A stretch of 64,000 bases of DNA from contig OZ271854.1 of NCBI GenBank assembly GCA_965601925.1, positions 2,176,001-2,240,000 of the forward strand, given 5' to 3'. A program made the position numbers and the translations under genes. Origin of the DNA: Alkalispirochaeta sp. (GTDB taxonomy: Bacteria > Spirochaetota > Spirochaetia > DSM-27196 > Alkalispirochaetaceae). Positions 1,407 to 23,783 of the stretch are shown one piece after another; within the stretch, counting starts at the first letter, position 1, and each line of letters begins with the position of its first letter. The notes below the pieces were generated by a model. It saw nothing but the letters and a program-made list of their open reading frames with translations, did no database searches and had not been told where the DNA came from.

Positions 1407-1554
1407 GAGGACCTCCTTGGAAAGGATATACTTGTGTATATACTATCATGAAACAGATCGCTCATCCAGAGAAGCCGATGCAACAATGCGTTGTATAAAT
1501 TGTCGCGTCTTTTTTCTTTTTGTTGATGATTTCACTCTTCGTATGCGACGCGCC

Positions 1555-1644
1555 GTCTAACACTGAGCTGACCCGCAAGATGCGGCCCGGAGTCGCGTAG
1601 CGGCGGAATGATTGGCGTGGCGGTTGCGTACGCGAGCGCCGTGA
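1555..1644 (-). repeat. attC site, long family, truncated (R''/L'' arm missing)
   Basis: GTCTAAC-actgagctgacccgcaagatgcggcccggag...gccgtga aligns with the attC at 23663 and then diverges abruptly. Confidence 0.8.
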
Positions 1645-1826
1645 TGATATGAGAACGCCGCACCCCACCGTACAAGGTGAGGTACCCTTACCTCGTACAG
1701 CGTTCATATCCCGCGCGGAAGGAGGTGCAACCATACGCAGTATATCGCCTTTGATTCGCACAAGCGATATACGTGTGCATCGGCCGAAGATCACGACACC
1801 GGTGTGATCGTTGACCGGAGGATCGA

Positions 1827-2462: not shown

Positions 2463-2562
2463 TAACCAAGCATACCAAACAAATGGATCGGCAGACAGAA
2501 GGACGCGATGCCTATCATCAACCACCAACTGGCGGTTCATTCCTGGAATGTACCGGCAAGCA

Positions 2563-2640
2563 ACATAACAACCGCATCACCTGCGCCCTCGCAGGAGCGA
2601 AAACTCCGAGAAAGCGACCGTTGCATGCGCCATGCTATGT
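2563..2640 (-). repeat. attC site, short family (R'' mutated)
   Basis: + strand ACATAAC-aaccg-CATCAC...TTGCATG-cgccat-GCTATGT; near-copy of 5648-5724. Confidence 0.8.
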
Positions 2641-3068
2641 GGCGATAGATCAATCCGTTTACATCGTCTTCGGGTATACAGGCCTCGAGATCGGCAGGTC
2701 GTCGCCTGGTTTCTTCTTGATCACCTATGCGAACTGCGTCCTCGTGTACGGCAGGTGAGTAACGTGTGTCTATTACCCGCCCAAAACCAACCGGAAACTG
2801 TACATTTCTCGCCGGTTGTCACGTGTGCATCTTCATTCGAGCGGTTAGGCCGACGTGTGTATCCGTGCGAGCGGCTCGTGTGAGCGCATTTTCGTGCGAA
2901 CCTACCTTTTGCGCCTTCTGCTCCGTATACCGTTTCCATAACCTGCATTTGTAATATAGGACCAATTTTGACCTGTATAGCCGGTACACTATGAATGAGC
3001 AGCTGGTATTTCGGTTCGATCTATGAAGTACTGCGAAGTTTTGAAGATGTATCATAGGAGGGGATGCA

Positions 3069-3581
3069 ATGAGTCAATCACACAAGGTTCAACCAGTTCC
3101 CCAAGACAAAGGCTCTGTTACGCCGTACATCGTCGTCAAAGGCGTCGTACGGTTCATCGACTTTCTGAAAGCGGCTTTTGATGCTGTGGAACGAGGTCGC
3201 GGGTACAACGAGGATGGGACGATCGGACACGCCGAAGTCTTAATCGGGAACAGAATTGTGATGATGTTCGATGCAAAACCGGAGTGGCCGGACACACCCG
3301 CTTTTTTATCCCTGTATGTCGAAGACTGTGATAGCGTCCATCAGCGAGCAGTACGGGCCGGCGGCACCACGGTCACCGCTTTGTCCACCAGTGCATGGGG
3401 TGATCGCGGCAGTCGCGTCCGCGATCCCTTCGGCAACATCTGGTGGATTCAGACCCATGTGGAAGATGTGACTGAAGCCGAGAGCGTCCAGCGGATGCAG
3501 GAGGATAGATATCTTGAGGACATGCGAATAGCGCAGGAGACGCTCGACCATGAACTTCGAAGCCGGGGCGGAAGAGGATAG
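3069..3581 (+). CDS. VOC/glyoxalase (PhnB-like) protein
   Basis: VTPYIVV...FLKAAFDA...GHAEV...WGDRGSRVRDPFGNIWWI. Confidence 0.9.
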   Translation: MSQSHKVQPVPQDKGSVTPYIVVKGVVRFIDFLKAAFDAVERGRGYNEDGTIGHAEVLIGNRIVMMFDAKPEWPDTPAFLSLYVEDCDSVHQRAVRAGGTTVTALSTSAWGDRGSRVRDPFGNIWWIQTHVEDVTEAESVQRMQEDRYLEDMRIAQETLDHELRSRGGRG

Positions 3582-3593
3582 ACTCCTACCGTC

Positions 3594-4083
3594 TCATAAT
3601 GAGCGCATCGCGACCGAGTCCTCGGGCTCGAAGCAGATCTTGATACGTCGCGCGCCCGCGGTAGCAAGCAGGTCGATGCCCTTGGTAAGCACGTGGCGGG
3701 CAATTCCTTTTCGTCGGTGCCTATCGATCGTGCGCACAGGCTCGACCATACCCGTAGCGGAAAGCGGATCCATCCAAAACAACCCATATGACGACATGGG
3801 AGAGGAGTTCCTCTTTTCCGTCCGGCATGAAGTGCAGGGCCAGAGCAACATGGTCGCCCCAGTCGGTTGCCGTTACCGTCGCCTGAGGACGGTCTGCCGA
3901 ATCAAACCAAAACAACTGGGGAAACCCGTCCGTCTTTGGGCGTGGAAGACGCCACCACCATTGCAGGTCGGCGGCCTCAAACAGGCCTGCGGTCGGGTGC
4001 GCAACACGGGCCTGTTGCAGCAATCTCGTTGCCGCCAAGTAGTCAGACCCAGTAAGAAACCGTTCTCGTAATCCGTTCAACAC
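3594..4083 (-). pseudogene. GNAT acetyltransferase, frameshifted/deleted
   Basis: N-terminal part in ORF 3721-4083; VEPVRT..HRRKGIARHVL acetyl-CoA motif in a different frame (3594-3851). Confidence 0.65.
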
Positions 4084-4143
4084 ACTGCACCTTTGGTCCG
4101 ATTAGACCCTATCCCTTCTTGGGACATCACATGCCACAACGGT

Positions 4144-5103
4144 TTATAGCGAACGAAGGTCCAGCACCAGCTTTCCCACGTGATGGCCGACCACCCGTTC
4201 GTGAGCCGAGGCGGCTTCAGATCCTCGCACGACCGCACTTACATGCGGCTTCACGCCGTGCCGTTCAATCGTGTCGAACAGGCGTTCGGTAATCTCCCTG
4301 TTGGGTTCCCCGTAGTAGGGGGTGCACGTAATATCCTCAGGTACCACGGGCGTAGGAGTCACTCCCGACGGGAAAGTCACAACTCCGCCGGCTTTCGTCA
4401 ACCGACATACCTCATTCGCCCGCGAGCCTCCGGCTGTCAGTAGCACGTTGCCGAGTTTGCCACTTTCGGCTGCAAGCAGCGACGCAAAATCCGTTTCGTC
4501 TCGTCCGTCAAACACCGAGTTACACCCGAGTCGTCGCACCAACTCGACCCCGTCGGGCCCCGATGCCACTGCATTGACCTCGGCTCCGATGGCGTTTGCA
4601 AGTTGTACCGCCACGTGTCCAACTCCGCCGGAGGCCCCGAACACGCACAAAGAGTCGTTCGAGCGGAGACCTAGAACATCTGCGAGCCCACGCAGGGCGG
4701 TGATACCGACACCAAGGACGGCGCTTGCTTCAACCATCGAGTATCCCGCCGGAACTGGGGCGACCGTCTCCTCGCCGACGGCCACGTATTCGGCGTAGAA
4801 GCCGCCTTTTGGATTGAGAAAGCCCGATGCCATGACGCGGTCGCCTCGCGCGAATTGTGTCACGGCGTCGCCGACGGCCACGATTTCTCCGGCTCCCTCG
4901 GATCCCAAGACATAGGGGAAGGTCGGAGCGATGCCGAGCATCTCGGCGTATCCGCCTTGACGCTCGAACACGTCCCACGAACCGACACCGGCGTACTCGA
5001 TACGAATCAGAACTTCGTTGCTCGCAATGTCGGGAACCGGAACCGATCCGATAGAAAGCTCCGACTCGTCACCGAAACGCTCAATCACAACCGCTTTCAT
5101 CAT
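4144..5103 (-). CDS. NADP-dependent quinone oxidoreductase (MDR superfamily)
   Basis: MKAVVIERFG, FPYVLGSEGAG, GFYAEY, GASGGVG, HVGKLVL. Confidence 0.92.
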   Translation of the reverse strand: MMKAVVIERFGDESELSIGSVPVPDIASNEVLIRIEYAGVGSWDVFERQGGYAEMLGIAPTFPYVLGSEGAGEIVAVGDAVTQFARGDRVMASGFLNPKGGFYAEYVAVGEETVAPVPAGYSMVEASAVLGVGITALRGLADVLGLRSNDSLCVFGASGGVGHVAVQLANAIGAEVNAVASGPDGVELVRRLGCNSVFDGRDETDFASLLAAESGKLGNVLLTAGGSRANEVCRLTKAGGVVTFPSGVTPTPVVPEDITCTPYYGEPNREITERLFDTIERHGVKPHVSAVVRGSEAASAHERVVGHHVGKLVLDLRSL

Positions 5104-5177
5104 TTTCACAGGCTTCCTCCCATCACTACGGCCCCCCGGCCGCACCTTGCGATGGGTCAGGCTACCACGACGAAGTG

Positions 5178-5534
5178 TCAGGTCTTGTCAGCAGCCGTTC
5201 GCACCCCGGTCCGCCTCGCGAGCAGCTTTTCTCGTCGGTTCCATCGTTCGAACAGTGCGGTGTGCGAAATCGGCGTTCGCGACCGATCGAGAGACCAATC
5301 CAATATCCGATCGCTTCGAAAGTGGCGAAAGTCCGAACGCATTTCGCACCACGCTGCGACCAGACGCGCGGTCGTGAAGTATCCGATCGCTATCGGCCAT
5401 ATCGTGCGATTACTCTCCGTCCCGCTCACCTTTCGGTATCGTATGCGGACCTTCCTCCCGTCTCGGATTGAGTCGCGTAAGCATTTGAGAAGTTTATCGT
5501 CACCTTTCTGCGTTTGTTTGGGGCCCCAATACAA
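5178..5534 (-). pseudogene. WYL-domain fragment of YafY-like regulator (HTH missing)
   Basis: IRY....RTIWPIAIGY....LVAWCEMRSDFRHFRSDRI; no intact N-terminus. Confidence 0.75.
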
Positions 5535-5647
5535 GACCGCAAGCCCGTGACAATCGTTCCGTCGTGCTCGAAACGGTTGTCGATACCTTATCTATCGCGG
5601 TCCTCGCGGAGGCGCTTAACGCGCGATCCCGTTTGCAGCCGTCCGCC

Positions 5648-5724
5648 ATATAACAATCGCATCACCTACGCCCTCGCAGGAACGGAGTGACGAAAAGGCG
5701 ACTGATGCATGCGCCATGTTATGT
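5648..5724 (-). repeat. attC site, short family
   Basis: ATATAAC-aatcg-CATCAC...ATGCATG-cgccat-GTTATGT with an extra G in the minus-strand L''. Confidence 0.85.
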
Positions 5725-5814
5725 GGCGATCGATGAATACATCTCCTCATCTGAAGTAACCATGTTCTTTTTCCGGTCTTATGACATGTGAGCACGGCGG
5801 TCTCTGTTGCGACC

Positions 5815-8862: not shown

Positions 8863-9012
8863 TCGGTATCATGATACATCCAGCGTATATACATTGTAAA
8901 CAATCGCATCGATCAATGTGTTACGAACGTTCTCCGGGATGCGTGTGCTTTTGCATTTTGATCTGGTAGAGGCTATTTCTTGGTGATTTGCGCTTAGGCT
9001 CCGCCGGGCGCA

Positions 9013-9134
9013 ATGTAACACCGAGCTGACCTGCAAGATGCGGCCCGGAGTCGCGAAGTGACGGAGGGATTGGCGCGTGCCTTGCGCATCGCAAGGCGCG
9101 TGACAAAGCAGATTGACTGGTCCAGCGTTATGTT
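9013..9134 (-). repeat. attC site, long family, IS1182 inserted at R''
   Basis: ATGTAAC-accga-GCTGACC...GGTCCAGC-gttat-GTT|IS. Confidence 0.9.
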
Positions 9135-10796
9135 GAGACTGTCGCACAACGCAGTCGTGGTCTGCTAGCATCGTGCCTGGGAGGAGCCAATGCCGAACTA
9201 CCGAGGAAACGAGGGGCAGGATCTCATGATTCCGGTGTGCCTGGATGATCAGCTGGTGCCGGGTACCATCGAACACGCCATCACCTGGATCGTCGACCAC
9301 GAGATCGATACGTCGGTGTTCGATGCAGCCTATCACAACGACCACGGCGGTCGCCCGGCCTGTGATCCGGCCGCGCTGGTGAAGATCATCTTGTTCGCCT
9401 ACTCCCGGGGCATCCTCTCCTCACGGAAGATCGAGGAAGCCTGCCGGACCAACATCGTGTTCATGGCCCTCAGTGGTGATATCCGGCCCGACCACGCCAC
9501 GATCGCCCGGTTCGTTACCGGCCATCCCGCGGCGGTTCGTCGTGTGTTCCGGGATGTGCTGATGATTGCGGCACAGGGCGATCTGATCGGTGGGGACGTG
9601 TTTGCACTGGACGGCTGCAAGATCAGCTCGAACGCCGCCCGAGAGCACGCGGGGACGCGACGGGAACTGGAGAAGAAGAGAGCGAAGCTTGAAGCACGTC
9701 TTGAGGCGATACTGCTCACTCATCGCGGCGCAGATGAGGCATGCACCTCCGATAACGACGATCAACAGGGCAGACCCGGTTCAGGGACAGCTGATCGCTA
9801 CCGGGCGCAGATCGACCGCATCAAAGGATTCCTCGACGCCCATCCACCCCGCACCGGCACCAGCGGACGCGAGGTGAAATCCAACATCACCGACAATCAG
9901 AGTGCCACACTGAAAACCGGGAGTGGCTACATCCAGGGCTATAACGCGCTGGCGATGGTGGATGCGAAGCACCAGATCGTGCTACACGCTGAACCGGTCG
10001 GTCAGATCCATGAGGCACCGCTGCTGCCACGGATGGTGCGCCGGTCACTGCATACACTGCGCAGGTTCGCACATCCCCAGGCCTGCACACCGACCATCCT
10101 CGCTGATACCAACTATTTCACCGAATCCAACGCCCGGTTCCTGATCGACTCTGATCTCGACGGCTATATCCCCGACCATCAGTTCCGGAATCGGGACATG
10201 CGATTCGCGGATCGGAGTCGATCGCGCCGGGCGGCACACCGGCGCTTCACCCAAGCCGATTTCCTCTACCAGAGCGACACCGACAGCTATCGTTGTCCGG
10301 CCGGCAAGACGTTGCGACGGCGCACCCGGGAGGTGGTTGCCGGGCGTCGTGGTACGCGCTATGAAGCGAAGCAATCAGACTGCAGTGCATGCGATCTCAC
10401 CTCCCGCTGTCTGATCCGTACTGCAACCCGGCGTAGACTCTTCCGCGGTGACGGTCCAGCCGGGACCTATGCCCAACAGATGCGTGATCGGATCGACACC
10501 GAACGGGGTCGACGGATGTACGCCAGACGCATGGGTATCGTGGAGCCGGTCTTTGCGAACATCACCGCCACCAAGGGCATGCGACGATTCACGCTCCGAG
10601 GCCGGGCGAAGGTCCGCATTCAATGGCTCCTGTACACGCTGGTGCACAACATCGAAAAGATCGCCACCACCGGGCTGATTCATCGGTTAGTCGGAGTTTG
10701 ATCCGGGTGGGTGGCGGGTTGAAGAATGCCTGGCCACGATCACTGGCCGTGAACTACTCGCTCCGCGTGGGTTCCCACGCGTTGTGCGACAGCCTC
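9135..10796 (+). mobile_element. IS1182-family element, copy 1 (1662 bp)
   Basis: IRs GAGACTGTCGCACAACGC / GCGTTGTGCGACAGCCTC (17/18); flanking GTT duplication. Confidence 0.95.
9190..10701 (+). CDS. IS1182-family DDE transposase
   Basis: SSRKIEEAC, PDHATIARF, LDGCKI, QGYN, CPAG, VEPVFANI. Confidence 0.95.
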   Translation: MPNYRGNEGQDLMIPVCLDDQLVPGTIEHAITWIVDHEIDTSVFDAAYHNDHGGRPACDPAALVKIILFAYSRGILSSRKIEEACRTNIVFMALSGDIRPDHATIARFVTGHPAAVRRVFRDVLMIAAQGDLIGGDVFALDGCKISSNAAREHAGTRRELEKKRAKLEARLEAILLTHRGADEACTSDNDDQQGRPGSGTADRYRAQIDRIKGFLDAHPPRTGTSGREVKSNITDNQSATLKTGSGYIQGYNALAMVDAKHQIVLHAEPVGQIHEAPLLPRMVRRSLHTLRRFAHPQACTPTILADTNYFTESNARFLIDSDLDGYIPDHQFRNRDMRFADRSRSRRAAHRRFTQADFLYQSDTDSYRCPAGKTLRRRTREVVAGRRGTRYEAKQSDCSACDLTSRCLIRTATRRRLFRGDGPAGTYAQQMRDRIDTERGRRMYARRMGIVEPVFANITATKGMRRFTLRGRAKVRIQWLLYTLVHNIEKIATTGLIHRLVGV

Positions 10797-10850
10797 GTTA
10801 CATTGCGACCTGCTTACCAGTATACGAGGAGATTTCCTGTTCTTCTTCTC

Positions 10851-10895
10851 TTTTTCACCGAGTGGCTGAAGCACCACGGTCAACCACCCGGTAAT
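10851..10895. repeat. Conserved hairpin downstream of the 88-aa ORF (copy A)
   Basis: accgagtggctg...caaccacccggt, shared with 22466-22510. Confidence 0.65.
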
Positions 10896-10916
10896 GATTA
10901 TTGGAATGGGGCCTTT

Positions 10917-11183
10917 CTATGAGGCCTTTTCTTGGCGGTGCGTCTGCTTGCCGGCGCGCGCCGCCACTTTGAAGATACATCCGTCGCACTGACCCTTTGT
11001 GCTTTTGCACCTGCAAGCGACGCATACGTCATAGAGATCATAATCATCAATCGCATCGAGGATGAGGCGATTCAGTGTCCTTGTCATTGGCTCATTCTTG
11101 AACCACGCCATTCGCCTGAGAGCAAACACCGCATCGCGGCTCACCTTGGGGACATACGTACCGGCAGTTTTTGTTGTGTGCAT
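10917..11183 (-). CDS. 88-aa hypothetical RHH-like protein with C-terminal Cys cluster (copy A)
   Basis: GGAGG RBS before ATG 11183; YVPKVSRDAVFALRRMAW...PMTRTL; CxxCxC...CxxC; close paralogue at 22529. Confidence 0.8.
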   Translation of the reverse strand: MHTTKTAGTYVPKVSRDAVFALRRMAWFKNEPMTRTLNRLILDAIDDYDLYDVCVACRCKSTKGQCDGCIFKVAARAGKQTHRQEKAS

Positions 11184-11209
11184 TTTCTGCACCTCCATAA
11201 TGAGATGTA

Positions 11210-11385
11210 TGCGAGACAACTCTCGCACCGGAGGTGCGACACGAATCCTCGTTTTCCTGTGTCAAGGTCGAACGCAGAGAGCCCGAAGGGCTTGGCCTTT
11301 ACACAGGGAAACGAGGACGTAGAATGAAAAAACTGCGGGAGGAAATCCTGGTTTAGGCAATTACGCGAAATAGGCCGATTCGGTT
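11210..11385. promoter_or_regulatory. Conserved hairpin/promoter element, copy 2
   Basis: Stem 11247-11316 with compensatory change; TGTCAA in left arm; TTTACA(11298)-16-TAGAAT(11320) in right arm. Confidence 0.8.
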
Positions 11386-11413
11386 TTTGCTTGTGCCGCC
11401 CATCGATGCGTTA

Positions 11414-11812
11414 CTATTTCGCCCAGTTTTCGATATCCAGGCCGTTTATTCGCTCGAAGTGTTTTTGATTGTTCGTTACCAATATCAAATTGTGAGTGAG
11501 CGCCGTTGCAGCGATCAGCAGATCCATATCGGCGACAATATTTCCTTGCTTCTCTAATGACGTTTTGATTTCTCCGAATGTCTCAACCACGGCGGGGGTG
11601 ATGTCTATGATCGGAAACAATTCAGCAATCCGGTATGCTCGAGCAAGATTCTTTTCGACTGCCTTCGATTTCTTAGCTCCGTACACAAGTTCGCCATACG
11701 TGATGACCGATAACGATTTTGGCGAGTTCCGGTATTCATGGAAATTCTGCTTCACTCGTTCATCGCCTTTCAGGCTATAAATGACGATGTCGGTATCGAT
11801 CAAATAGTTCAT
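11414..11812 (-). CDS. vapC: VapC PIN-domain toxin
   Basis: YLIDTDIVI...GELVYG...DLLIAATAL...VTNNQKHFERI. Confidence 0.95.
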   Translation of the reverse strand: MNYLIDTDIVIYSLKGDERVKQNFHEYRNSPKSLSVITYGELVYGAKKSKAVEKNLARAYRIAELFPIIDITPAVVETFGEIKTSLEKQGNIVADMDLLIAATALTHNLILVTNNQKHFERINGLDIENWAK

Positions 11813-12074
11813 TTGTATTTGTAAATCGCGCTGATTCAGTTCGTCCGTTTCGAATGGATTTCACAATATCTTCGGCCGATCGATCATCTTCCCAACTTCC
11901 AGATAGTTTCAGAAATTCATCAGTTGGATTGATATCGAAGGCGCGAGGGAGGGACAGATATTTTTCCAGGATATGGACGACTTCTTGACTGATTGAACGT
12001 CGTTCTTTTGATGCGCGAACGCGCAACGATTCATAGAGTTTTTCGTCGATATCACGTACTTGCAAATTGGCCAT
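11775..12074 (-). CDS. FitA/Arc-like RHH antitoxin
   Basis: MANLQVRDIDEKLYESLRVRASKERRSISQEV; upstream of vapC. Confidence 0.88.
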   Translation of the reverse strand: MANLQVRDIDEKLYESLRVRASKERRSISQEVVHILEKYLSLPRAFDINPTDEFLKLSGSWEDDRSAEDIVKSIRNGRTESARFTNTNELFDRYRHRHL

Positions 12075-12240
12075 AGGTTCTTCTCCGAGTCTCAGTATAC
12101 ATCCATTCATGAATTATGTGTAGATTTGCATGATTCCCATCGTGTGGTCTGGGAATTACGATTAAAGCATTCTCGCACCAGCATTTTGATCTGGTAGAGG
12201 CTATTTCTTGGTGATTTGCGCTTAGGCTCCGCCGGGCGCA

Positions 12241-12362
12241 ATGTAACACCGAGCTGACCTGCAAGATGCGGCCCGGAGTCGCGAAGTGACGGAGGGATTG
12301 GCGCGTGCCTTGCGCATCGCAAGGCGCGTGACAAAGCAGATTGACTGGTCCAGCGTTATGTT
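12241..12362 (-). repeat. attC site, long family, IS1182 inserted at R''
   Basis: Identical to 9013-9134. Confidence 0.9.
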
Positions 12363-14024
12363 GAGACTGTCGCACAACGCAGTCGTGGTCTGCTAGCATC
12401 GTGCCTGGGAGGAGCCAATGCCGAACTACCGAGGAAACGAGGGGCAGGATCTCATGATTCCGGTGTGCCTGGATGATCAGCTGGTGCCGGGTACCATCGA
12501 ACACGCCATCACCTGGATCGTCGACCACGAGATCGATACGTCGGTGTTCGATGCAGCCTATCACAACGACCACGGCGGTCGCCCGGCCTGTGATCCGGCC
12601 GCGCTGGTGAAGATCATCTTGTTCGCCTACTCCCGGGGCATCCTCTCCTCACGGAAGATCGAGGAAGCCTGCCGGACCAACATCGTGTTCATGGCCCTCA
12701 GTGGTGATATCCGGCCCGACCACGCCACGATCGCCCGGTTCGTTACCGGCCATCCCGCGGCGGTTCGTCGTGTGTTCCGGGATGTGCTGATGATTGCGGC
12801 ACAGGGCGATCTGATCGGTGGGGACGTGTTTGCACTGGACGGCTGCAAGATCAGCTCGAACGCCGCCCGAGAGCACGCGGGGACGCGACGGGAACTGGAG
12901 AAGAAGAGAGCGAAGCTTGAAGCACGTCTTGAGGCGATACTGCTCACTCATCGCGGCGCAGATGAGGCATGCACCTCCGATAACGACGATCAACAGGGCA
13001 GACCCGGTTCAGGGACAGCTGATCGCTACCGGGCGCAGATCGACCGCATCAAAGGATTCCTCGACGCCCATCCACCCCGCACCGGCACCAGCGGACGCGA
13101 GGTGAAATCCAACATCACCGACAATCAGAGTGCCACACTGAAAACCGGGAGTGGCTACATCCAGGGCTATAACGCGCTGGCGATGGTGGATGCGAAGCAC
13201 CAGATCGTGCTACACGCTGAACCGGTCGGTCAGATCCATGAGGCACCGCTGCTGCCACGGATGGTGCGCCGGTCACTGCATACACTGCGCAGGTTCGCAC
13301 ATCCCCAGGCCTGCACACCGACCATCCTCGCTGATACCAACTATTTCACCGAATCCAACGCCCGGTTCCTGATCGACTCTGATCTCGACGGCTATATCCC
13401 CGACCATCAGTTCCGGAATCGGGACATGCGATTCGCGGATCGGAGTCGATCGCGCCGGGCGGCACACCGGCGCTTCACCCAAGCCGATTTCCTCTACCAG
13501 AGCGACACCGACAGCTATCGTTGTCCGGCCGGCAAGACGTTGCGACGGCGCACCCGGGAGGTGGTTGCCGGGCGTCGTGGTACGCGCTATGAAGCGAAGC
13601 AATCAGACTGCAGTGCATGCGATCTCACCTCCCGCTGTCTGATCCGTACTGCAACCCGGCGTAGACTCTTCCGCGGTGACGGTCCAGCCGGGACCTATGC
13701 CCAACAGATGCGTGATCGGATCGACACCGAACGGGGTCGACGGATGTACGCCAGACGCATGGGTATCGTGGAGCCGGTCTTTGCGAACATCACCGCCACC
13801 AAGGGCATGCGACGATTCACGCTCCGAGGCCGGGCGAAGGTCCGCATTCAATGGCTCCTGTACACGCTGGTGCACAACATCGAAAAGATCGCCACCACCG
13901 GGCTGATTCATCGGTTAGTCGGAGTTTGATCCGGGTGGGTGGCGGGTTGAAGAATGCCTGGCCACGATCACTGGCCGTGAACTACTCGCTCCGCGTGGGT
14001 TCCCACGCGTTGTGCGACAGCCTC
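12363..14024 (+). mobile_element. IS1182-family element, copy 2
   Basis: Same IRs, length and GTT duplication as copy 1. Confidence 0.95.
12418..13929 (+). CDS. IS1182-family transposase
   Basis: Protein identical to 9190-10701. Confidence 0.95.
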   Translation: MPNYRGNEGQDLMIPVCLDDQLVPGTIEHAITWIVDHEIDTSVFDAAYHNDHGGRPACDPAALVKIILFAYSRGILSSRKIEEACRTNIVFMALSGDIRPDHATIARFVTGHPAAVRRVFRDVLMIAAQGDLIGGDVFALDGCKISSNAAREHAGTRRELEKKRAKLEARLEAILLTHRGADEACTSDNDDQQGRPGSGTADRYRAQIDRIKGFLDAHPPRTGTSGREVKSNITDNQSATLKTGSGYIQGYNALAMVDAKHQIVLHAEPVGQIHEAPLLPRMVRRSLHTLRRFAHPQACTPTILADTNYFTESNARFLIDSDLDGYIPDHQFRNRDMRFADRSRSRRAAHRRFTQADFLYQSDTDSYRCPAGKTLRRRTREVVAGRRGTRYEAKQSDCSACDLTSRCLIRTATRRRLFRGDGPAGTYAQQMRDRIDTERGRRMYARRMGIVEPVFANITATKGMRRFTLRGRAKVRIQWLLYTLVHNIEKIATTGLIHRLVGV

Positions 14025-14039
14025 GTTATATGGCGGGCA

Positions 14040-16031
14040 TTAGGCGCCTTGATACCATTCTGACGGTATTAACTTGCGTCCGGCACGCCATTCCTCAACC
14101 TCATGTATATTCCCTATTTCGCCGTATATGCTTTTATCTGCGTGATCCAGAATGATGGCCTGCCATTCGCCATCACTTTCTGCCACGGCATCGGCAAGTG
14201 TACGGAAAATTTGCCTTACAGCTTGCTCATCATCTTCGTCATCGTATCGAGAATCCTCTTCTTCTACTTCCTCACCGCTCTTTACCTTAGGGAAATAGAC
14301 CTGACTTGGCTGATCAAATACGGCGAAACTCGGTACTACCGACCAGCTTTGCTCTAAAAAAAATTTTTGAAGCGCGCATATCAGAGCTAAATGGAAGGAA
14401 ACCCAGTTTGATGCGCTGCCAATTTCTGACAAATAATGCCAGTTTCTATCGGTACTTATTACCTGCATATTCAAGTCTTTAACGTTCAATGACGGTGGTG
14501 TTTCGCGGTATTTTGCTTCTACGTCTAAAGTTTGAAGATAGTTCAAAATGTATTGCGAAATACGCATTTTAGCCGCAGAGAGACGCCTTTCCACCGCTTT
14601 AGGATCAATAACTTGCAAAAGATGCTCTCGGCGGGCTACAAGAGTTGCAATACGTTCTTCGAGCTCGCCACCGGCTTGAAGCTTTTCAAATGTTTCAACC
14701 GAGGCTTTCAGATGGCCCAAGAACAAAAAAAGAGTTTTTGCCTTTTGAAACTCTTCCTTTGTTTTTTGGTCACGAAGAAACAGCGTGTCATACCGATCTC
14801 TTAGAATTCTTTGCTCCTCGATTAAGCTTTCAAGTTCTTTATTTAAACGTTCTTCTTCTCTGTCGAATGATGTCGGGATTTCCTCAACGCGCTTCGACTC
14901 GGCTTCATATTCCTCGAACACCGAAGCTATTCTTGACATTTCTTCACTACTTCTTGGATGATCATCGCTTCCACATAGAGGGCAGACCTTGGCATCAGAG
15001 GCCAGATCTGTTAGCCAGTTGGAAATATGCAACCTGTCAGAACGTCTTTTTACAGTCACGCTATACTCTGTTAGACTGGTCTTAAGCTGCTTCACGTCGT
15101 CGAGTCGTTTACGTAGCTTTGCCAATCGCTGGCTTAAATCATCCTCTTCCTTGTCTAATTCAATTAGCGCCTGACTCGCTTTTTGAAAATTACTTAACTC
15201 TGCAATTGAATAATTCGGGGCCTCTTGGACTAGTTGTCTTGCGATTAGGATTAGTTCGTCTGGGTCCGAAACATCTCGTGGGTCTCGATCGAGCAAACCA
15301 TATTGTTGGGCTATTCTGAGTTGCCCCTGTAGATTATTCGACCACGATTTTGAGTGAGCTTTCGCTCGTTCAAAATCGCGTTCAAGTGCTTTTAGACGCT
15401 GTTCGAGCTCCTGCAGTTCCTGTCTAGCTTTCAGAACCTCTATATTCTCTGCGCCCAGTATGAAAGGAAGCCAGTTGCGAAGTCGTTCGCGATGTTCATG
15501 AGCATGCGTTTTATAGAATAGGATGTTCTGATTTGCGACTATGTCTTGGCTTTGAAAGACCAACGCAACCAAATCTCGGAAGCCCAAACGTGCTTGATAG
15601 GCTTTTCTTTCGAACTCGCCCTCGAGAGAAAAATATGGCACATTGGAAATTGTGTTTAAGATGTTTTTGACCCCTTCGGGGTTCTCGTTGGCCGTTTCAA
15701 TGACGGGGGGAACTGAAATTTCCTTTGCGCGGGTCACATAGAAATTTGAAGACACCTTATTGTCTTTCGGCACGGCACGAGCGATAAGAATTTGCTCAGA
15801 TTGTGTTTGAAATGCGACACCGTACCAGGAGGCATAGTCGCGTATGACATCAATAGGCACATTACATTCTGTTGAAGCAAGACAGTAATCAATCAGTGGT
15901 ATTATTGCAGATTTTCCTGTTCGAGATGCGCCGGTTATCACGTTCAGCTTTCCTGGTACAAATTCAACAACTCTTGGTGGGAATGTTGAATCGATTGGCC
16001 AAATTAAAACTTTTAACAGTTGGAATTGCAT
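14040..16031 (-). CDS. lmuB: Lamassu LmuB-like SMC/ABC ATPase (DUF3732)
   Basis: Walker A GASRTGKS, coiled coil with CPLC hook, GSASNW signature, FDQPSQVYFP; ATG coupled to upstream TAA. Confidence 0.88.
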   Translation of the reverse strand: MQFQLLKVLIWPIDSTFPPRVVEFVPGKLNVITGASRTGKSAIIPLIDYCLASTECNVPIDVIRDYASWYGVAFQTQSEQILIARAVPKDNKVSSNFYVTRAKEISVPPVIETANENPEGVKNILNTISNVPYFSLEGEFERKAYQARLGFRDLVALVFQSQDIVANQNILFYKTHAHEHRERLRNWLPFILGAENIEVLKARQELQELEQRLKALERDFERAKAHSKSWSNNLQGQLRIAQQYGLLDRDPRDVSDPDELILIARQLVQEAPNYSIAELSNFQKASQALIELDKEEDDLSQRLAKLRKRLDDVKQLKTSLTEYSVTVKRRSDRLHISNWLTDLASDAKVCPLCGSDDHPRSSEEMSRIASVFEEYEAESKRVEEIPTSFDREEERLNKELESLIEEQRILRDRYDTLFLRDQKTKEEFQKAKTLFLFLGHLKASVETFEKLQAGGELEERIATLVARREHLLQVIDPKAVERRLSAAKMRISQYILNYLQTLDVEAKYRETPPSLNVKDLNMQVISTDRNWHYLSEIGSASNWVSFHLALICALQKFFLEQSWSVVPSFAVFDQPSQVYFPKVKSGEEVEEEDSRYDDEDDEQAVRQIFRTLADAVAESDGEWQAIILDHADKSIYGEIGNIHEVEEWRAGRKLIPSEWYQGA

Positions 16032-16534
16032 TACAAGACAACCTTCAGGTATTGTGCCGCCGATGAAACACTTATTTGGGAAAACCATTTGCCGAGAATT
16101 TGTGCTTTTTCCCCATTTTTCATATGCATTTCATTAATTAACCCTCTTTTTATATTCCCATATTCATGAATTCGTGGATAAATCTTTGCGGAATCTTTAT
16201 CCCAAACTATAAGCCCCGACTTTATTGCAATATCAATTGCCGAAATTGTTACGCTTCGCTTCTTTTTTATTCTTTCTTGTAGAGAAACCAGCAAATCGAT
16301 TTCTTTCTTCTGCTCGAAACCTCTTACGTAAGACTGAAGGCTTTTCCGGCGATTATTAACAGAAAGCAAGAAATGATCGGTTGTGAGCAGTGGATACGCC
16401 ATGAAGTGTAATAATGCCACAGGAGCGTCTCCAGTTGAATGATGACTAACGAAACCAACAGTGAAGTTCCAGAGTTGGTATGCTCCTATCACTGGAGAAT
16501 TCCAGTTTCTAACTTCATCTACTAAGCTTTCCAT
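16031..16534 (-). CDS. lmuC: ABC three-component middle component (LmuC-like)
   Basis: NSPVIGAYQLWNF...AQILGKWF; lies between effector and ATPase. Confidence 0.8.
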   Translation of the reverse strand: MESLVDEVRNWNSPVIGAYQLWNFTVGFVSHHSTGDAPVALLHFMAYPLLTTDHFLLSVNNRRKSLQSYVRGFEQKKEIDLLVSLQERIKKKRSVTISAIDIAIKSGLIVWDKDSAKIYPRIHEYGNIKRGLINEMHMKNGEKAQILGKWFSQISVSSAAQYLKVVL

Positions 16535-16546
16535 GTTTTGCTCTCT

Positions 16547-17692
16547 CTATGCTTTTTGAATCAAGTTTTGCCAGCGTGGATGCCAACCCAGGAGTTCGTT
16601 ATCTGCTAATGTATGATACGTCCCCGCAATGGTTGAGCTTGGAGGAGGCATGTTCCTTATTGTTGCTTGATGAGTTGAGCAATCAAGTAGCAACAGTTGT
16701 CCTCGGACTTCTTCGGGTTTGTCTTGTTGAGTTAGAAAAATTCTCTTTTTTGAATGGACCCAGAACTCCGATAACTTGTTCTGAAAATCCACAGCGGAGT
16801 CCTCGTCTATGATTTCATTTTCGATCCACTTTTGACGGTTGACTTTCGCCTTTAGAAACGCAGTGACCGACTCAACAATCTCTTCTTCTGTGCAGTCAAT
16901 TAGTTCTAACTGTTTAATATATGAAGGGCGTAGCTTTAATTGCATTTTTTTCATTTTATCGTCGATAGGATCTATCAAAGTGAAATCTATCAACTCTCTT
17001 TGTCGCACACGATCAAAAAGAACGGATTTCTCTTTGTAAAAATCGTCCCAAGTAATGCAAGCTATTTGGTTTTCAGCGATCATTTCGGTCAGTGTATTGT
17101 GCAACCAGCCAGTAAGATTTTGAACAAGGAAAGGGATTTGGGTTTCAGGTACAAGTATTCGCTTTAGTTCGTCACGTACTTCATCTAAGCCCGCACCGTC
17201 TCCTATTATTAAACTAAATTTCTTAATTATTTCAATAAATAAATTTTCATTATTCAATAAATAGCTATAATATTTCCAAATATTGTGTTCATTATTAATA
17301 TCAGAGAAGCCTTTCTTGATTTCTGAAATAACTTGACGAGCGTCATCGGTATCTTTCGCAGAATTTAGTCTATTAACAAGGGCTGGCTTACCATGATTGT
17401 TGGCGTAGAGAATGAAGCATGTGGTTTCCGTGTCAATATTGCTTTCTTGAACAAGAATTGCCCAGTTATAAAATGTTTTCCAAAGATTTGTAGATCTATC
17501 TGTTAAAGGATTTCCCAGGACTGAGGACTTATCTTCCTCAGAAACCATATCTCCTTCACGAGAAGTTACAGATACATCTCCATTGAACTCAACATATACA
17601 GTTCCACCGGGGCCAGTACGCAATAAGTGAAAAAGTGCTCGAGGAATTTGGATAGAATAGCCCAGAAATTGACCAGATGCATTCGAACTCAT
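16547..17692 (-). CDS. lmuA: Lamassu effector LmuA-like (Cap4-like nuclease plus C-terminal domain)
   Basis: ASGQFLGYSIQ..RAL, E...D...EEDK, NPLTDRSTNLWKT, GTYHTLAD...GWHPRW. Confidence 0.8.
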   Translation of the reverse strand: MSSNASGQFLGYSIQIPRALFHLLRTGPGGTVYVEFNGDVSVTSREGDMVSEEDKSSVLGNPLTDRSTNLWKTFYNWAILVQESNIDTETTCFILYANNHGKPALVNRLNSAKDTDDARQVISEIKKGFSDINNEHNIWKYYSYLLNNENLFIEIIKKFSLIIGDGAGLDEVRDELKRILVPETQIPFLVQNLTGWLHNTLTEMIAENQIACITWDDFYKEKSVLFDRVRQRELIDFTLIDPIDDKMKKMQLKLRPSYIKQLELIDCTEEEIVESVTAFLKAKVNRQKWIENEIIDEDSAVDFQNKLSEFWVHSKKRIFLTQQDKPEEVRGQLLLLDCSTHQATIRNMPPPSSTIAGTYHTLADNELLGWHPRWQNLIQKA

Positions 17693-17844
17693 AAATCTGC
17701 AACCTTAGTAATTCTATGCCAACCTCGTAGATAGTCAAATAGTAATATCGACGTTACAAAACCATCTCGCCAATATTAAACACATCGGGCCAGCGTCATT
17801 GTTTAGCATCCTCCATCGTGAAGAATCTTACCTGCTCTAAAGCC

Positions 17845-17961
17845 ATATAACACCGAGCTGACCTGCAAGATGCGGCCCGGAGCCGTAGGCGGAGGGATTG
17901 GCGCGGTTTTTGCGCACGCAAAAGCCGTGACAAAGCAGATTGACTGGTCCAGCGTTATGTT
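17845..17961 (-). repeat. attC site, long family, IS1182 inserted at R''
   Basis: ATATAAC-accga-GCTGACC...GGTCCAGC-gttat-GTT|IS with variant internal hairpins. Confidence 0.9.
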
Positions 17962-19623
17962 GAGACTGTCGCACAACGCAGTCGTGGTCTGCTAGCATCG
18001 TGCCTGGGAGGAGCCAATGCCGAACTACCGAGGAAACGAGGGGCAGGATCTCATGATTCCGGTGTGCCTGGATGATCAGCTGGTGCCGGGTACCATCGAA
18101 CACGCCATCACCTGGATCGTCGACCACGAGATCGATACGTCGGTGTTCGATGCAGCCTATCACAACGACCACGGCGGTCGCCCGGCCTGTGATCCGGCCG
18201 CGCTGGTGAAGATCATCTTGTTCGCCTACTCCCGGGGCATCCTCTCCTCACGGAAGATCGAGGAAGCCTGCCGGACCAACATCGTGTTCATGGCCCTCAG
18301 TGGTGATATCCGGCCCGACCACGCCACGATCGCCCGGTTCGTTACCGGCCATCCCGCGGCGGTTCGTCGTGTGTTCCGGGATGTGCTGATGATTGCGGCA
18401 CAGGGCGATCTGATCGGTGGGGACGTGTTTGCACTGGACGGCTGCAAGATCAGCTCGAACGCCGCCCGAGAGCACGCGGGGACGCGACGGGAACTGGAGA
18501 AGAAGAGAGCGAAGCTTGAAGCACGTCTTGAGGCGATACTGCTCACTCATCGCGGCGCAGATGAGGCATGCACCTCCGATAACGACGATCAACAGGGCAG
18601 ACCCGGTTCAGGGACAGCTGATCGCTACCGGGCGCAGATCGACCGCATCAAAGGATTCCTCGACGCCCATCCACCCCGCACCGGCACCAGCGGACGCGAG
18701 GTGAAATCCAACATCACCGACAATCAGAGTGCCACACTGAAAACCGGGAGTGGCTACATCCAGGGCTATAACGCGCTGGCGATGGTGGATGCGAAGCACC
18801 AGATCGTGCTACACGCTGAACCGGTCGGTCAGATCCATGAGGCACCGCTGCTGCCACGGATGGTGCGCCGGTCACTGCATACACTGCGCAGGTTCGCACA
18901 TCCCCAGGCCTGCACACCGACCATCCTCGCTGATACCAACTATTTCACCGAATCCAACGCCCGGTTCCTGATCGACTCTGATCTCGACGGCTATATCCCC
19001 GACCATCAGTTCCGGAATCGGGACATGCGATTCGCGGATCGGAGTCGATCGCGCCGGGCGGCACACCGGCGCTTCACCCAAGCCGATTTCCTCTACCAGA
19101 GCGACACCGACAGCTATCGTTGTCCGGCCGGCAAGACGTTGCGACGGCGCACCCGGGAGGTGGTTGCCGGGCGTCGTGGTACGCGCTATGAAGCGAAGCA
19201 ATCAGACTGCAGTGCATGCGATCTCACCTCCCGCTGTCTGATCCGTACTGCAACCCGGCGTAGACTCTTCCGCGGTGACGGTCCAGCCGGGACCTATGCC
19301 CAACAGATGCGTGATCGGATCGACACCGAACGGGGTCGACGGATGTACGCCAGACGCATGGGTATCGTGGAGCCGGTCTTTGCGAACATCACCGCCACCA
19401 AGGGCATGCGACGATTCACGCTCCGAGGCCGGGCGAAGGTCCGCATTCAATGGCTCCTGTACACGCTGGTGCACAACATCGAAAAGATCGCCACCACCGG
19501 GCTGATTCATCGGTTAGTCGGAGTTTGATCCGGGTGGGTGGCGGGTTGAAGAATGCCTGGCCACGATCACTGGCCGTGAACTACTCGCTCCGCGTGGGTT
19601 CCCACGCGTTGTGCGACAGCCTC
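17962..19623 (+). mobile_element. IS1182-family element, copy 3
   Basis: Same IRs, length and GTT duplication. Confidence 0.95.
18017..19528 (+). CDS. IS1182-family transposase
   Basis: Protein identical to the other copies. Confidence 0.95.
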   Translation: MPNYRGNEGQDLMIPVCLDDQLVPGTIEHAITWIVDHEIDTSVFDAAYHNDHGGRPACDPAALVKIILFAYSRGILSSRKIEEACRTNIVFMALSGDIRPDHATIARFVTGHPAAVRRVFRDVLMIAAQGDLIGGDVFALDGCKISSNAAREHAGTRRELEKKRAKLEARLEAILLTHRGADEACTSDNDDQQGRPGSGTADRYRAQIDRIKGFLDAHPPRTGTSGREVKSNITDNQSATLKTGSGYIQGYNALAMVDAKHQIVLHAEPVGQIHEAPLLPRMVRRSLHTLRRFAHPQACTPTILADTNYFTESNARFLIDSDLDGYIPDHQFRNRDMRFADRSRSRRAAHRRFTQADFLYQSDTDSYRCPAGKTLRRRTREVVAGRRGTRYEAKQSDCSACDLTSRCLIRTATRRRLFRGDGPAGTYAQQMRDRIDTERGRRMYARRMGIVEPVFANITATKGMRRFTLRGRAKVRIQWLLYTLVHNIEKIATTGLIHRLVGV

Positions 19624-19624
19624 G

Positions 19625-22306
19625 TTATGTTGATTCTTTGAGAGCGTACTTTCGCTCCCTCTTTTCGAATGCCTCGACACCACCCTCAAGGTTTAATAGC
19701 GAGTTTCGGTGGGATAGGTCTTCAATTGTAGCAAAGTCGACGTTGGTCTTAGCCTCGGGCATTGATAAGATAGTAGTTAGCTCGGCGTCAGCATTGACTA
19801 CAATGTTGGCATTGTGTGTAGCGAATATCATCTGCCGTGAAGACTTCTTTTCCTTGATCAGGTCAACCAGGTAGTTCGCGATCAAAGAACTATCTAGATG
19901 GGCCTCTGGTTCATCAATGATGATTGGGTTATTTCCAAACAACAACAGAATCACGATCACCGTCGTGCAACGTTGACCAAACGAGGACGCTTCGATTGGC
20001 CGTCCTCGATATCTCACATTGACTCGAATCACTTCGTTAAAATCGAAATAGGCGACTCGTGCAAGATGTTTATAAATCGAAAAATTAATCTCATCGGCGA
20101 ATACCTTCGCAAGATATCGTCGAGAATTTGTGTCCCCAACAACGTGGTTACGTAAGTCATCTATGGATACACTCTCGTCTATTAGTGCTTTCGGATCGAT
20201 TCCAAACAGACACTCTTTGACCCTATCAGACCTATAGTTGAACTCTGTTCCCAAATCACCGAAATGATCTATGAAACGCGCGAACAGATTCTCTGTTGCT
20301 GTTTCTTCGTCTATCCCTACATTCAGTTCGATTCTATCAATTTCGTTTGGATTACTCCTGTTAACGTTCTCCAAAACTGATTTCAATGCGCCTATTTCGT
20401 TGGTGACTACACTAACCAGGTTGTTGAATGAAGCTTGAAGCTTCGATTCATCGTGTTCCTCAATCTGATCGTCGATCATCGATATCCGCGAATCAATATC
20501 GTCAAGTTCGGCTGATAGAGAATCAACGAGGCTCCCTGAGTTCTTTATATCTTCTATGTTCTCAGGTGTTACTCCGATTCCCTCAAGATATTGACCCAGT
20601 TCGTCTTGTCTTTCTCGATGTTGAGTCTGGAGTTTATTTTCAGTCTCGATTTCTTTATCGAAGATAGACTCGGACAGGAACGATGTGTGTAGCTGCGAGA
20701 GCCCTTTCAAAAACTCGTTATATGCGACCAGATAATGGGAGCTATCTTCATTGTTTTGGACTGGAGGATGGTTCTTAAGCAACTCATTGACGTCATCTCT
20801 CAGTCTTTCCAAACGTGTTCGTTCGGCCCTAATACCGACAAGTTTTCTATTAGATTCGGTCACGGAATCGTTCAGGGTTTTGTAGTCGTCTCCTTCAATT
20901 GTCGCTGATACTTTCTTGTTGCTGTCTAAACTCAAGACAATACGACGACGTTCAGTGATTGCCTGTTGCTTCTCGACTAATAGACGGATGATATCTTCTA
21001 CTTCGGAAGTAGCTGTTGTTACAGCCAGTTCTTTCTCCGCGACATGAGAGTTACGGCGTCGAATCCGATCGTAAATGGCGTCGGTGAACTTCCGAGGATT
21101 GGTGGCATATTCTTCGATCTCGTTCTGTTCGAGAAACTCTAACCCCTCCGCTGAGTGGTCCACCTGAACAAAATCCGAATGACTTACATTTGAACCATCG
21201 GGGGTGATCGTGTTTTCCTTGTTAAACGTTGTAGAGGCCCCACTACGGATTACATCGACCAGCACGTTGAGCAAAGTGCTTTTCCCGGTTCCCCGGCCCC
21301 CGGTTACACACGTCAGAAAGGGACTAAGTTCCCAGTCTATCCTTACACCGGCGAAACAGAATGTCGAAGGTTCCGTACCGGTTCTGTTGATGATCACATT
21401 TTCGGGATAGTCCATATTCATTCTGGTTATACGTTTAGGCGCAAAAGGAGGACGAGCCTCGCCGATCTTTACTCTGTGCGCAGGCTCGAAGAAGACCTGG
21501 CGGAGCCCTTCAAAAGTTAGATCAGCTTTTATCCAAGTGATGTCTTTGTGGATTTGGCCGTTTTCTTCGCATCGTTTTCCGAGATAGTGATCAAGATCGT
21601 CGAACGAATGAGCATCGCTTCCAGAAAAAACGGGTTTGGGTATTGATGCCGAACTTGAGTCATCATATCGATTGGCAGACAGAAACCATTCAACGTTCTG
21701 TGATCCACCAAAAAATCCATCGGAAATCTTATCGATCTCATCGCTTATTATGCGTTTGCGTGGAGATTTGGAATCCGCTCGAATACCGGCATTGTTTGCG
21801 GCGGCAAGAATAAGAAATGGACGCATATCACCGAATACTTCGTGGAGTTTTTCTAATACTTCATGCTGGTTGACGCATGCAGAGACATATTCCGAAGGTT
21901 CGAGCTCAATACAAGATACTCTTGCGCCGTTTATAGTTTTGGATATCTTCAACTCATGCAGAAATCTCTCGATCTTCGACCGATCAAGTTGACTATCGAA
22001 AATGACATGGAGGTTTACCTCTTCCGCTGCTTTGTTGACTGACACATCAAGACGAAGCTCGATATTCGGGAAAAAAACTTTACCTGAGTTGGGATAAAGG
22101 CGCTTGTATTCGCTTAGGAACTCGAAATGACGGGCGACGGAGAAATAGTCGGTGATTCCAAACGCAATAACATCTGATTCATGAAGTTTGCGACAAAAAT
22201 CAACCAGACTGTTAGCGTTTGTCGCCAAATCGTAGCCGTCATTGAGATTTGTACCCGGAGGATGCACATGCAGATCCCATTTCCGCCAAATGGACCCGGT
22301 TGACAT
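19625..22306 (-). CDS. PHP domain + SMC-like ATPase (TrlF/Ppl-like anti-phage protein)
   Basis: WRKWDLHVH, ITDY, GSDAH (PHP); GGRGTGKST, SFGQR, IIIDEPE, FATHN; stop codon inside the R'' box ACATAAC. Confidence 0.85.
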   Translation of the reverse strand: MSTGSIWRKWDLHVHPPGTNLNDGYDLATNANSLVDFCRKLHESDVIAFGITDYFSVARHFEFLSEYKRLYPNSGKVFFPNIELRLDVSVNKAAEEVNLHVIFDSQLDRSKIERFLHELKISKTINGARVSCIELEPSEYVSACVNQHEVLEKLHEVFGDMRPFLILAAANNAGIRADSKSPRKRIISDEIDKISDGFFGGSQNVEWFLSANRYDDSSSASIPKPVFSGSDAHSFDDLDHYLGKRCEENGQIHKDITWIKADLTFEGLRQVFFEPAHRVKIGEARPPFAPKRITRMNMDYPENVIINRTGTEPSTFCFAGVRIDWELSPFLTCVTGGRGTGKSTLLNVLVDVIRSGASTTFNKENTITPDGSNVSHSDFVQVDHSAEGLEFLEQNEIEEYATNPRKFTDAIYDRIRRRNSHVAEKELAVTTATSEVEDIIRLLVEKQQAITERRRIVLSLDSNKKVSATIEGDDYKTLNDSVTESNRKLVGIRAERTRLERLRDDVNELLKNHPPVQNNEDSSHYLVAYNEFLKGLSQLHTSFLSESIFDKEIETENKLQTQHRERQDELGQYLEGIGVTPENIEDIKNSGSLVDSLSAELDDIDSRISMIDDQIEEHDESKLQASFNNLVSVVTNEIGALKSVLENVNRSNPNEIDRIELNVGIDEETATENLFARFIDHFGDLGTEFNYRSDRVKECLFGIDPKALIDESVSIDDLRNHVVGDTNSRRYLAKVFADEINFSIYKHLARVAYFDFNEVIRVNVRYRGRPIEASSFGQRCTTVIVILLLFGNNPIIIDEPEAHLDSSLIANYLVDLIKEKKSSRQMIFATHNANIVVNADAELTTILSMPEAKTNVDFATIEDLSHRNSLLNLEGGVEAFEKRERKYALKEST

Positions 22307-22340
22307 GCAAAAATTATGGATTGATTTGTCGGGATAAGCA

Positions 22341-22366
22341 ACATAATACAGACACCACCTGCGGCC
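22341..22366 (-). repeat. Degenerate attC half-site
   Basis: aagcaacataaT-acaga-caccacctgcgg resembles aagcaacataaC-aaccg-catcacctgcgc at 2558. Confidence 0.45.
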
Positions 22367-22465
22367 CGAAGCTGCTCTGCTAATGAAGGAGTTGGTAAGG
22401 GTTTAGCGCATACAAAACCGCCGGCTGATAAAAAATCATACTATGTCTTGGTTTTCGAAATAGCG

Positions 22466-23662: not shown

Positions 23663-23783
23663 ACATAACACCGAGCTGACCTGCAAGATGCGGCCCGGAG
23701 CCGCAGGCGGAGGGATTGGCGCGACTTTTGCGCATGCAAAAGTCGTGACAAAGCAGATTGACTGGTCCAGCGTTATGTTATGA
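23663..23783 (-). repeat. attC site, long family, intact and IS-free (121 bp)
   Basis: Minus strand TCATAAC-ataac-GCTGGACC...GGTCAGC-tcggt-GTTATGT. Confidence 0.92.

Follow-up and report, generated by a model that had tools for sequence, protein, structure and literature searches.

We analyzed a stretch of 64,000 nucleotides (nt) of the genome of Alkalispirochaeta sp. (assembly GCA_965601925.1, contig OZ271854.1, positions 2176001-2240000; hereafter the window), in which a 1,662-bp insertion sequence (IS) occurs three times on the + strand, each time at the foot of an attC site. The source genome is a single contig of 5.05 Mb and carries two further copies. We propose that the element is an active-looking IS of the IS1182 family with a DDE-type transposase, which would transpose selectively into the GTT/AAC triplet that closes attC stems and duplicate this triplet. 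We put the probability of this reading, which was drawn from sequence comparisons, at about 0.8. An attC site is an imperfect palindrome closed by RYYYAAC…GTTRRRY, with L boxes containing unpaired bases and a variable centre, and lies 3' of the open reading frames (ORFs) of gene cassettes. The IS copies of the window and the attC sites that bear their target are given below, with R' and R'' denoting the two closing boxes.

9013-9134, - strand: long-family attC, cut at its R'' end by IS copy 1; R' box at 9013-9019, L boxes, branched centre, left GTT at 9132-9134
9135-10796, + strand: IS copy 1; left inverted repeat (IRL) at 9135-9152, transposase ORF at 9190-10701 (503 amino acids), right inverted repeat (IRR) at 10779-10796; at the right junction GTT at 10797-10799 and the remainder of the R'' box up to 10803
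12241-12362, - strand: long-family attC, cut by IS copy 2; identical to 9013-9134
12363-14024, + strand: IS copy 2; transposase at 12418-13929, GTT at 12360-12362 and 14025-14027
17845-17961, - strand: long-family attC of another variant, cut by IS copy 3
17962-19623, + strand: IS copy 3; transposase at 18017-19528, GTT at 17959-17961 and 19624-19626
23663-23783, - strand: empty long-family attC with the target GTT at 23777-23779

The three copies in the window do not differ at a single base, as found with exact-motif and flank scripts. The two outside it (3564765-3566426, + strand, and 3736942-3738603, - strand) bring the total to five copies, all 100% identical. In the window every copy reads ...GGTCCAGCGTTATGTT|IS|GTTA, i.e., it is flanked by a 3-bp duplication of GTT. 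The junctions of the two outer copies are the same, so that GTT is duplicated at 5/5 copies and all of them stand at ...CCAGCGTTATGTT|IS|GTTA..., one base position of one attC family. The empty site (23760-23783) reads ...GGTCCAGCGTTATGTTATGA. A preliminary description, made from the letters of the window alone, had placed the three copies at one nucleotide with a GTT duplication and had named an empty site at 23777. Both were recovered by the scripts, and mapping across the genome found 5/5 copies in attC and none outside. Neither solo IS ends nor miniature derivatives were found elsewhere in the source genome.

The long attC family (~120 nt) has eight target-bearing sites in the genome, three of them empty, and the 13-mer CCAGCGTTATGTT occurs exactly eight times in the 5.05 Mb (five filled, three empty). 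For comparison, once the IS copies are collapsed the genome contains 14,144 GTTA sites, 87 TATGTTA, 15 GTTATGTTA, and 8 CAGCGTTATGTTA. The chance that five insertions out of five fall in the eight sites among the GTTA sites is ~6e-17, and a chance choice among GTTA sites is excluded.

The element has terminal inverted repeats of 18 bp that match at 17/18 positions (IRL GAGACTGTCGCACAACGC; IRR, as reverse complement, GAGGCTGTCGCACAACGC), and a single ORF of 503 amino acids lies between them. Elements of the IS1182 family span ~1.3-1.95 kb. The best NCBIfam model for the transposase is that of IS1182 (NF033551, 283 bits for a cut-off of 270, residues 11-493), and the only domains found are DUF772 (PF05598, 1e-16, N-terminal), DDE_Tnp_1_6 (PF13751, 7e-27), and DDE_Tnp_1 (PF01609, 2e-11), with no DEDD transposase of the IS110 type. 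The residues D141, D306, and E452, unchanged in an alignment of 24 close relatives, would form the DDE catalytic triad. Judged by its protein, the element is an IS1182-family IS with a DDE-type transposase, and the family assignment of the preliminary description is thus borne out by the NF033551 score and the Pfam domains.

To characterize the attC sites, we trained a covariance model (R2) on 13 attC-like targets of relatives, all from other genomes. These were chosen among 23 sites as being at most 70 nt long with bulges on the 5' arm, which excluded L089, L099, L012, L127, and six longer sites. A model with an automatic structure (R1, 7 pairs) was set aside and not used. With filters off, R2 gave its four best matches in the window at the four long attCs, each time on the - strand; in five further 20-kb regions, its four best were the genome's remaining four long attCs. 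The best match in the window is the empty site (23667-23783, 17.4 bits), followed by the interrupted ones, at 16.6-16.8 bits (16.8 for the attC beside copy 1, at 9017-9138 on the - strand; 16.6 for the one beside copy 3). The folds of the long attCs, the ORFs ending just before them, and the matches of a model made from foreign genomes all fit attC. A weak R2 match (12.5 bits, E 0.62) is also present on the - strand inside each IS (10656-10724, 13884-13952, and 19483-19551), near the 3' end of the transposase gene. It corresponds to a CGCCACC…GGTGGCG hairpin and is probably due to chance. A hand-built hairpin scan of positions 1-27000 of the window gave noise only and missed the true attCs.

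In the attCs of the window, the IS is placed at the 5' end of the R2 model. The genome has a single integron integrase (TIGR02249, 397 bits, 3568638-3569561, + strand); a filled attC lies 2.2 kb to its left, in the usual divergent layout. The cassette ORFs flanking the IS copies run on the - strand and terminate immediately to the right of each IS; the stop codon of the ORF at 19625-22306 overlaps the right GTTA of copy 3. Since ORF direction, intI position, and R2 strand agree on minus-strand cassettes, the IS occupies the R'' box, on the gene-proximal side, in antisense orientation to the cassettes, and hence no gene is interrupted. The IS end together with the duplication leaves an R-box-like TCTCAAC at R'', which stands in for the box and thereby explains that interrupted attCs score nearly as high as the empty one. 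The orientation opposite to the cassettes, the R'' location, the rebuilt TCTCAAC, and the sparing of genes had all been put forward from the window, and each holds with these additional data.

We then assessed whether the habit extends beyond this genome. A protein search returned ~24 metagenomic proteins at 59-87% identity, followed by a broad shelf near 45-50%. The alignment of the top 24 was used to collect 151 loci of relatives (77 from genomes and 74 from metagenomes, 36-72% identity), and their insertion ends were located by the conserved termini GAGnCTGTnG…. The duplication was GTT/GTT at 63 loci, AAC/AAC at 16, and GCT/GCT at 17. In the rest, only one end could be read (GTT 15, AAC 6, GCT 7) or the duplication was other or unclear (27). 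Of the GTT/GTT sites whose left flank extends over 150 nt or more, 36/49 adjoin a hairpin closed by AAC…GTT with at least 16 pairs in the terminal arms, compared with 15/150 random GTTA sites of the source genome (Mann-Whitney p = 3e-14). A fold forced on AAC/GTT was preferred to a 6-of-7 R-box partner because the last six bases of R' in arrays belong to the next cassette. Minimum-energy folds of the 170-nt flanks were too noisy to use. The hairpin lies on the side of the IRL at GTT sites (36/49, versus 9/51 on the IRR side), and the AAC group is its mirror image (IRR 9/14, IRL 3/15). In the target logo of 57 distinct GTT sites, the triplet is followed by A (84%), G (63%), G (63%), and C (58%), and GCT stands at positions -16 to -14; we take these to be the GTTRRRY core and the L box of the attC consensus.

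The R2 model gives a consistent picture. A match adjoins the IS in 19/24 loci outside the training set, and many of the relatives' loci have 2-5 matches a few hundred bases apart, like a cassette array. Relatives from many phyla share the arrangement GTT|IS|GTTRRRY at the foot of attC hairpins within such arrays. An integron integrase was found in all five relatives' genomes that were searched for it (5/5), on the same contig in two of them, 1.6 and 2.9 kb from the IS ORF. In 8/19 loci, the match is on the IS strand and ends one base before the IS. These are R' insertions, with the IS co-oriented with the cassettes, in agreement with the two intI-linked cases. In the other 11/19, it is on the opposite strand and reaches 4 nt into the IS, and these are R'' insertions, antisense, as in the source genome. 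The two modes imply that the IS keeps a constant polarity toward the hairpin and that either attC strand can be read. In the branch nearest to the element of the source genome, R'' insertions predominate, but L089 is an R' case. A table of bulge arm against ORF strand, covering the 36 sites that have 16 pairs or more (12 vs 3, 3 vs 7), is only suggestive, and the strand calls based on R2 are better evidence.

In a FastTree phylogeny of 96 transposases (midpoint root, no outgroup), GTT duplications are found throughout, AAC in a few subclades, and GCT in one derived subclade. The latter (L014, L017, L018, L113, L116-L119, L124-L126, L129, L130, L132, and others), whose sites read …CTGCT|AT…, has switched its target within the clade. 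The preliminary description had suggested a DDE transposase specialized on attC. That all copies lie at one attC nucleotide agrees with this, but the specialization is not that of one element, since it is spread over a wide IS1182 clade. The element is better described as a member of a wide attC-homing IS1182 branch with a GTT/AAC habit. At one relative's locus (L020, ~2978-3010), the right end of an IS is followed by GTT and then by a second IRL (GAGGCTGTCGAAAAAG…), i.e., tandem copies share one GTT, as would be expected had a GTT|GAG junction served as the target.

We also looked for the element in related organisms. Among 60 relatives' genomes, a match was found in only 1/16 of the same genus, where it was fragmentary, 67-73% identical, and flanked by AAC on the left; a 50-nt match was also seen in one genome of the same order. 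In 72,556 plasmid records, a protein search found three weak matches, which lie on large marine replicons, and no match in clinical integrons. The scarcity of matches in the relatives' genomes and the five identical copies suggest that the IS was recently acquired and then spread in a burst in the source genome.

The insertions choose the R-box triplet, duplicate 3 bp, keep a fixed polarity, and leave genes undamaged. One mechanism that could account for this is a transposase that recognizes GTT-A along with the base of the attC stem, which may be read when folded. Both attC strands would be usable, giving the R'' insertions seen here and the R' insertions of other branches. A structural cue is suggested by the use of both strands and by the hairpin always lying on a fixed side. 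As the termini start with GAG, the junction becomes GTT|GAG and fits GTTRRR, the pattern of an R box. An attC with the IS may thus stay a substrate of IntI, in which case the IS could move with the cassette.

Several observations weigh against the proposed attC targeting. All five insertions are in one attC subfamily with at least 16 identical bases at the target, so that structure and sequence are inseparable in this genome, and choice of the 9-mer GTTATGTTA (15 sites) alone would give 5/5 in attC with p ~0.04. The R2 E-values on the source genome are modest (0.02-0.08), and the whole-genome R2 search gave nothing at E<=10, the model being too weak for 10 Mb. In the relatives, the crude hairpin test is failed by 13/49 GTT sites, and no R2 match adjoins the IS at 5/24 loci (L011, L027, L099, L105, and L127). 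The subclade with GCT duplications has no hairpin signal (2/11 and 3/14 on the two sides) and does not target attC. It has kept the GAG termini all the same, and the rebuilding of the R box by these termini may therefore be incidental, a by-product. Lastly, precise insertion was examined with contigs of four metagenome runs over positions 8900-10950 (likeness threshold 90%). Contigs from two runs, one each, connect 9131 to 10797 and leave out 1,665 bases, i.e., the IS plus one GTT, but the sides of these joints are short (33 and 26 letters) at 90% likeness, which makes them weak but direct support. The runs with joints also carry variants of the IS, with GTTA again after the right end.

One could argue that the IS merely reads a primary-sequence word of ~9-13 bp (…GCGTTATGTT|A) within this attC family and that structure is irrelevant. 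Indeed, CCAGCGTTATGTTA is common to all five filled and three empty sites, the ~5 diverged long-family sites, which have other spacers, have stayed empty, and the R' ends (GGTGTT|A) of the same attCs are occupied in 0/8 cases; the small numbers of GTTATGTTA (15) and CAGCGTTATGTTA (8) sites in the genome fit as well. Yet relatives with unrelated flanks retain only GTT|A, the hairpin, and the L-box context, and the polarity of the hairpin relative to the IS is fixed. Choice of a short word, as in IS5-like elements, would not explain a position at the foot of the stem across many attC families. We thus regard a pure sequence word as unlikely, although the local sequence TATGTT|A may contribute to the target choice of this particular element.

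The IS might also be a generic hunter of hairpins, with attC sites taken simply as the most frequent strong hairpins of these genomes. Excerpts of PMC4923244 and PMC5678879 describe IS1272/TnSha1, a staphylococcal element of the same IS1182 family, as targeting hairpins or inverted repeats without sequence preference and without duplication, part of the hairpin being lost or replaced. A statement of Siguier 2015, as quoted in PMC4923244, has some IS1182 members targeting palindromes. The element studied here shares with IS1272 its family and an association with hairpins. Unlike IS1272, it uses one fixed triplet, makes a clean 3-bp duplication, and targets attC as a class, and it leaves the whole hairpin: filled attCs have the full length of empty ones, with no hairpin loss. 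Moreover, 0/5 copies are in a terminator or other palindrome, the flanks carry the attC-specific signal of GTTRRRY and L box, and copies of the IS lie in cassette arrays next to intI. Indiscriminate hairpin targeting is accordingly very improbable.

The question of how many insertions took place was addressed with the flanks. The attC and 60 nt beyond it (182 nt in total) are identical left of copies 1 and 2, and therefore these two are not independent on their left side. The shared stretch (8953-9134 and 12181-12362) ends at a sharp boundary beyond which the sequences are unrelated; it could be a common cassette leader, a product of gene conversion, or a recombination scar. The right flanks of the two copies diverge from the fifth base. 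Right flanks differ in all five copies, and an alignment of the eight attCs shows that the filled ones comprise at least four distinct variants, which gives a count of at least four independent insertion events among the five copies. The attC at 17845 does differ from that at 9013-9134, as had been noted, including in compensatory changes of the stems. That a single insertion was followed by copying of the attC+IS block by homologous or IntI-mediated recombination, with no target choice, would suit the 182 identical bases and their sharp boundary in copies 1 and 2, but it is scarcely credible, as homology on the right is limited to GTTA in all five copies, the attC halves differ among at least four of them with compensatory changes, IntI exchanges at R' and not on the side of the IS, and diverged relatives in other phyla have the same junction.

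Beyond selective insertion at the foot of attC, a broader picture can be considered, in which a phylum-spanning IS1182 branch is a parasite of integrons. It would read the folded foot of attC at the triplet cut by IntI, keep a fixed polarity on the extruded strand, preserve the R box, and be borne by cassettes between arrays. We hold this only tentatively and find it doubtful as a whole.

The remaining attC-like sites of the window, none of which carries an IS, are the following.

1547-1644, - strand: truncated long-family attC (ends ~1636), without the target end
2552-2670, - strand: first member of a "short" attC-like family
5637-5754, - strand: second member of the short family
22332-22417, - strand: degenerate relative of the long attC, with CATAAT for CATAAC

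The preliminary description had stated that attCs of the short family are not hit. All five copies are in the long family, as claimed, but the observation carries little weight, since the short family is few in number (the window has two clear members, and the genome adds a few) and ~5 diverged sites of the long family are empty too. Among the variants of the long family, an alignment and folds of eight attCs show compensatory changes in the central stems. The truncated attC is followed by a GC-rich palindromic stretch (…CCGTACAAGGTGAGGTACCCTTACCTCGTACAG…; 1547-1700 of the window). It was considered as a possible intron domain, a reading that was rejected when Rfam gave no match over 1400-5800 at E<=1. 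Over the whole window, Rfam at the gathering score gave no match and no group II intron.

The array in the window lies ~1.37 Mb from intI and is a cluster of attC sites without an integrase. Across the genome, attC-like sites of both families are found at 2.12-2.20, 3.55-3.57, and 3.73-3.76 Mb, with single ones near 1.17, 1.54, 2.42, and 3.23 Mb; intI is present only in the array at 3.55-3.57 Mb. The products of the ORFs flanking the IS copies include a PIN/RHH and a BrnT/CopG pair, a three-gene ABC-3C set, and a large AAA_21 ATPase. The ABC-3C-type cassette (DUF3732, MC3, CTD7) occupies 14040-17692, and the cassette at 19625-22306 encodes the ATPase (893 amino acids), with toxin-antitoxin pairs of the PIN/FitA-like and BrnT/CopG types among its neighbours. 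The array looks rich in defence genes. Across positions 8969-9175, the summed contig depth in coral and marine metagenome runs is higher on the attC (up to ~170 in one coral run, 4-20 in the marine run) than on the IS (roughly 2-30). Loose ends of metagenome contigs past 9134 run on as ATACC…, which points to many empty attCs of the long family with GTTATAC boxes. A consensus scan of the IS and its flanks returned 0 promoters and 0 terminators and is uninformative on an outward promoter. The GC skew has its minimum near 1.6 Mb and its maximum near 3.8-4.0 Mb and is flat around the window, and allows no conclusion on leading or lagging strand.

To our knowledge, attC has so far been the target of only two kinds of mobile elements, namely RNA-guided DEDD elements of the IS1111 type and group IIC introns. 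Of the former, the IS1111-attC elements (ISPa21, ISPst6, and relatives; IS110/IS1111 family) are not known to make a classical duplication. The attC-targeting IS1111-attC group is reportedly the subject of works by Tetu and Holmes in 2008 and by Post and Hall in 2009. In the source genome, the element studied here resembles this group in entering attC close to its 5' end, in antisense orientation to the cassettes, a likeness in working and not in membership: it has a DDE transposase of the IS1182 family, inverted repeats at its termini, and a duplicated GTT where the R-box triplet lies, unlike the RNA-guided DEDD elements. According to passages of PMC3001079, the IS1111-attC group inserts near the 5' end of attC in antisense to the cassette array, and an excerpt of PMC11187229 gives the IS1111-type transposase as a DEDD enzyme guided by RNA. 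Group IIC-attC introns, in passages of PMC3001079, enter attC at its bottom strand, against the direction of cassette transcription, and are a monophyletic subset, specialized on attC, of a family that seeks hairpins. Those introns are retroelements with a ribozyme and a reverse transcriptase, whereas the ORF of the present element is a transposase and the window has no Rfam match. A further parallel is offered by IS1202-family elements, which home in one orientation beside dif/pdif, a tyrosine-recombinase site (according to part of PMC10132070). Both cases are oriented homing next to a tyrosine-recombinase site, but the IS1202 elements are of another family and lie at the XerC/D dif site, 5 bp from the binding site and not at the crossover triplet. 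In full-text literature searches, whose coverage left ISfinder, TnCentral, and subscription papers outside, no description of IS1182 elements targeting attC was found.

If this reading is true, a third lineage, of the DDE type, uses the strand-exchange triplet of IntI, and the feet of attC sites would be a general landing pad for selfish DNA. The elements would be natural probes of whether and when attC folds in vivo and on which strand, a point in which the R'' and R' branches differ. A copy of IS1182 flanked by GTT would be a cheap marker of attC, and such copies, or miniature derivatives of them, break the attC calls of integron finders. In the chromosomal integrons of environmental bacteria, these IS would be an added source of array rearrangement, cassette silencing, or cassette-linked spread of IS.

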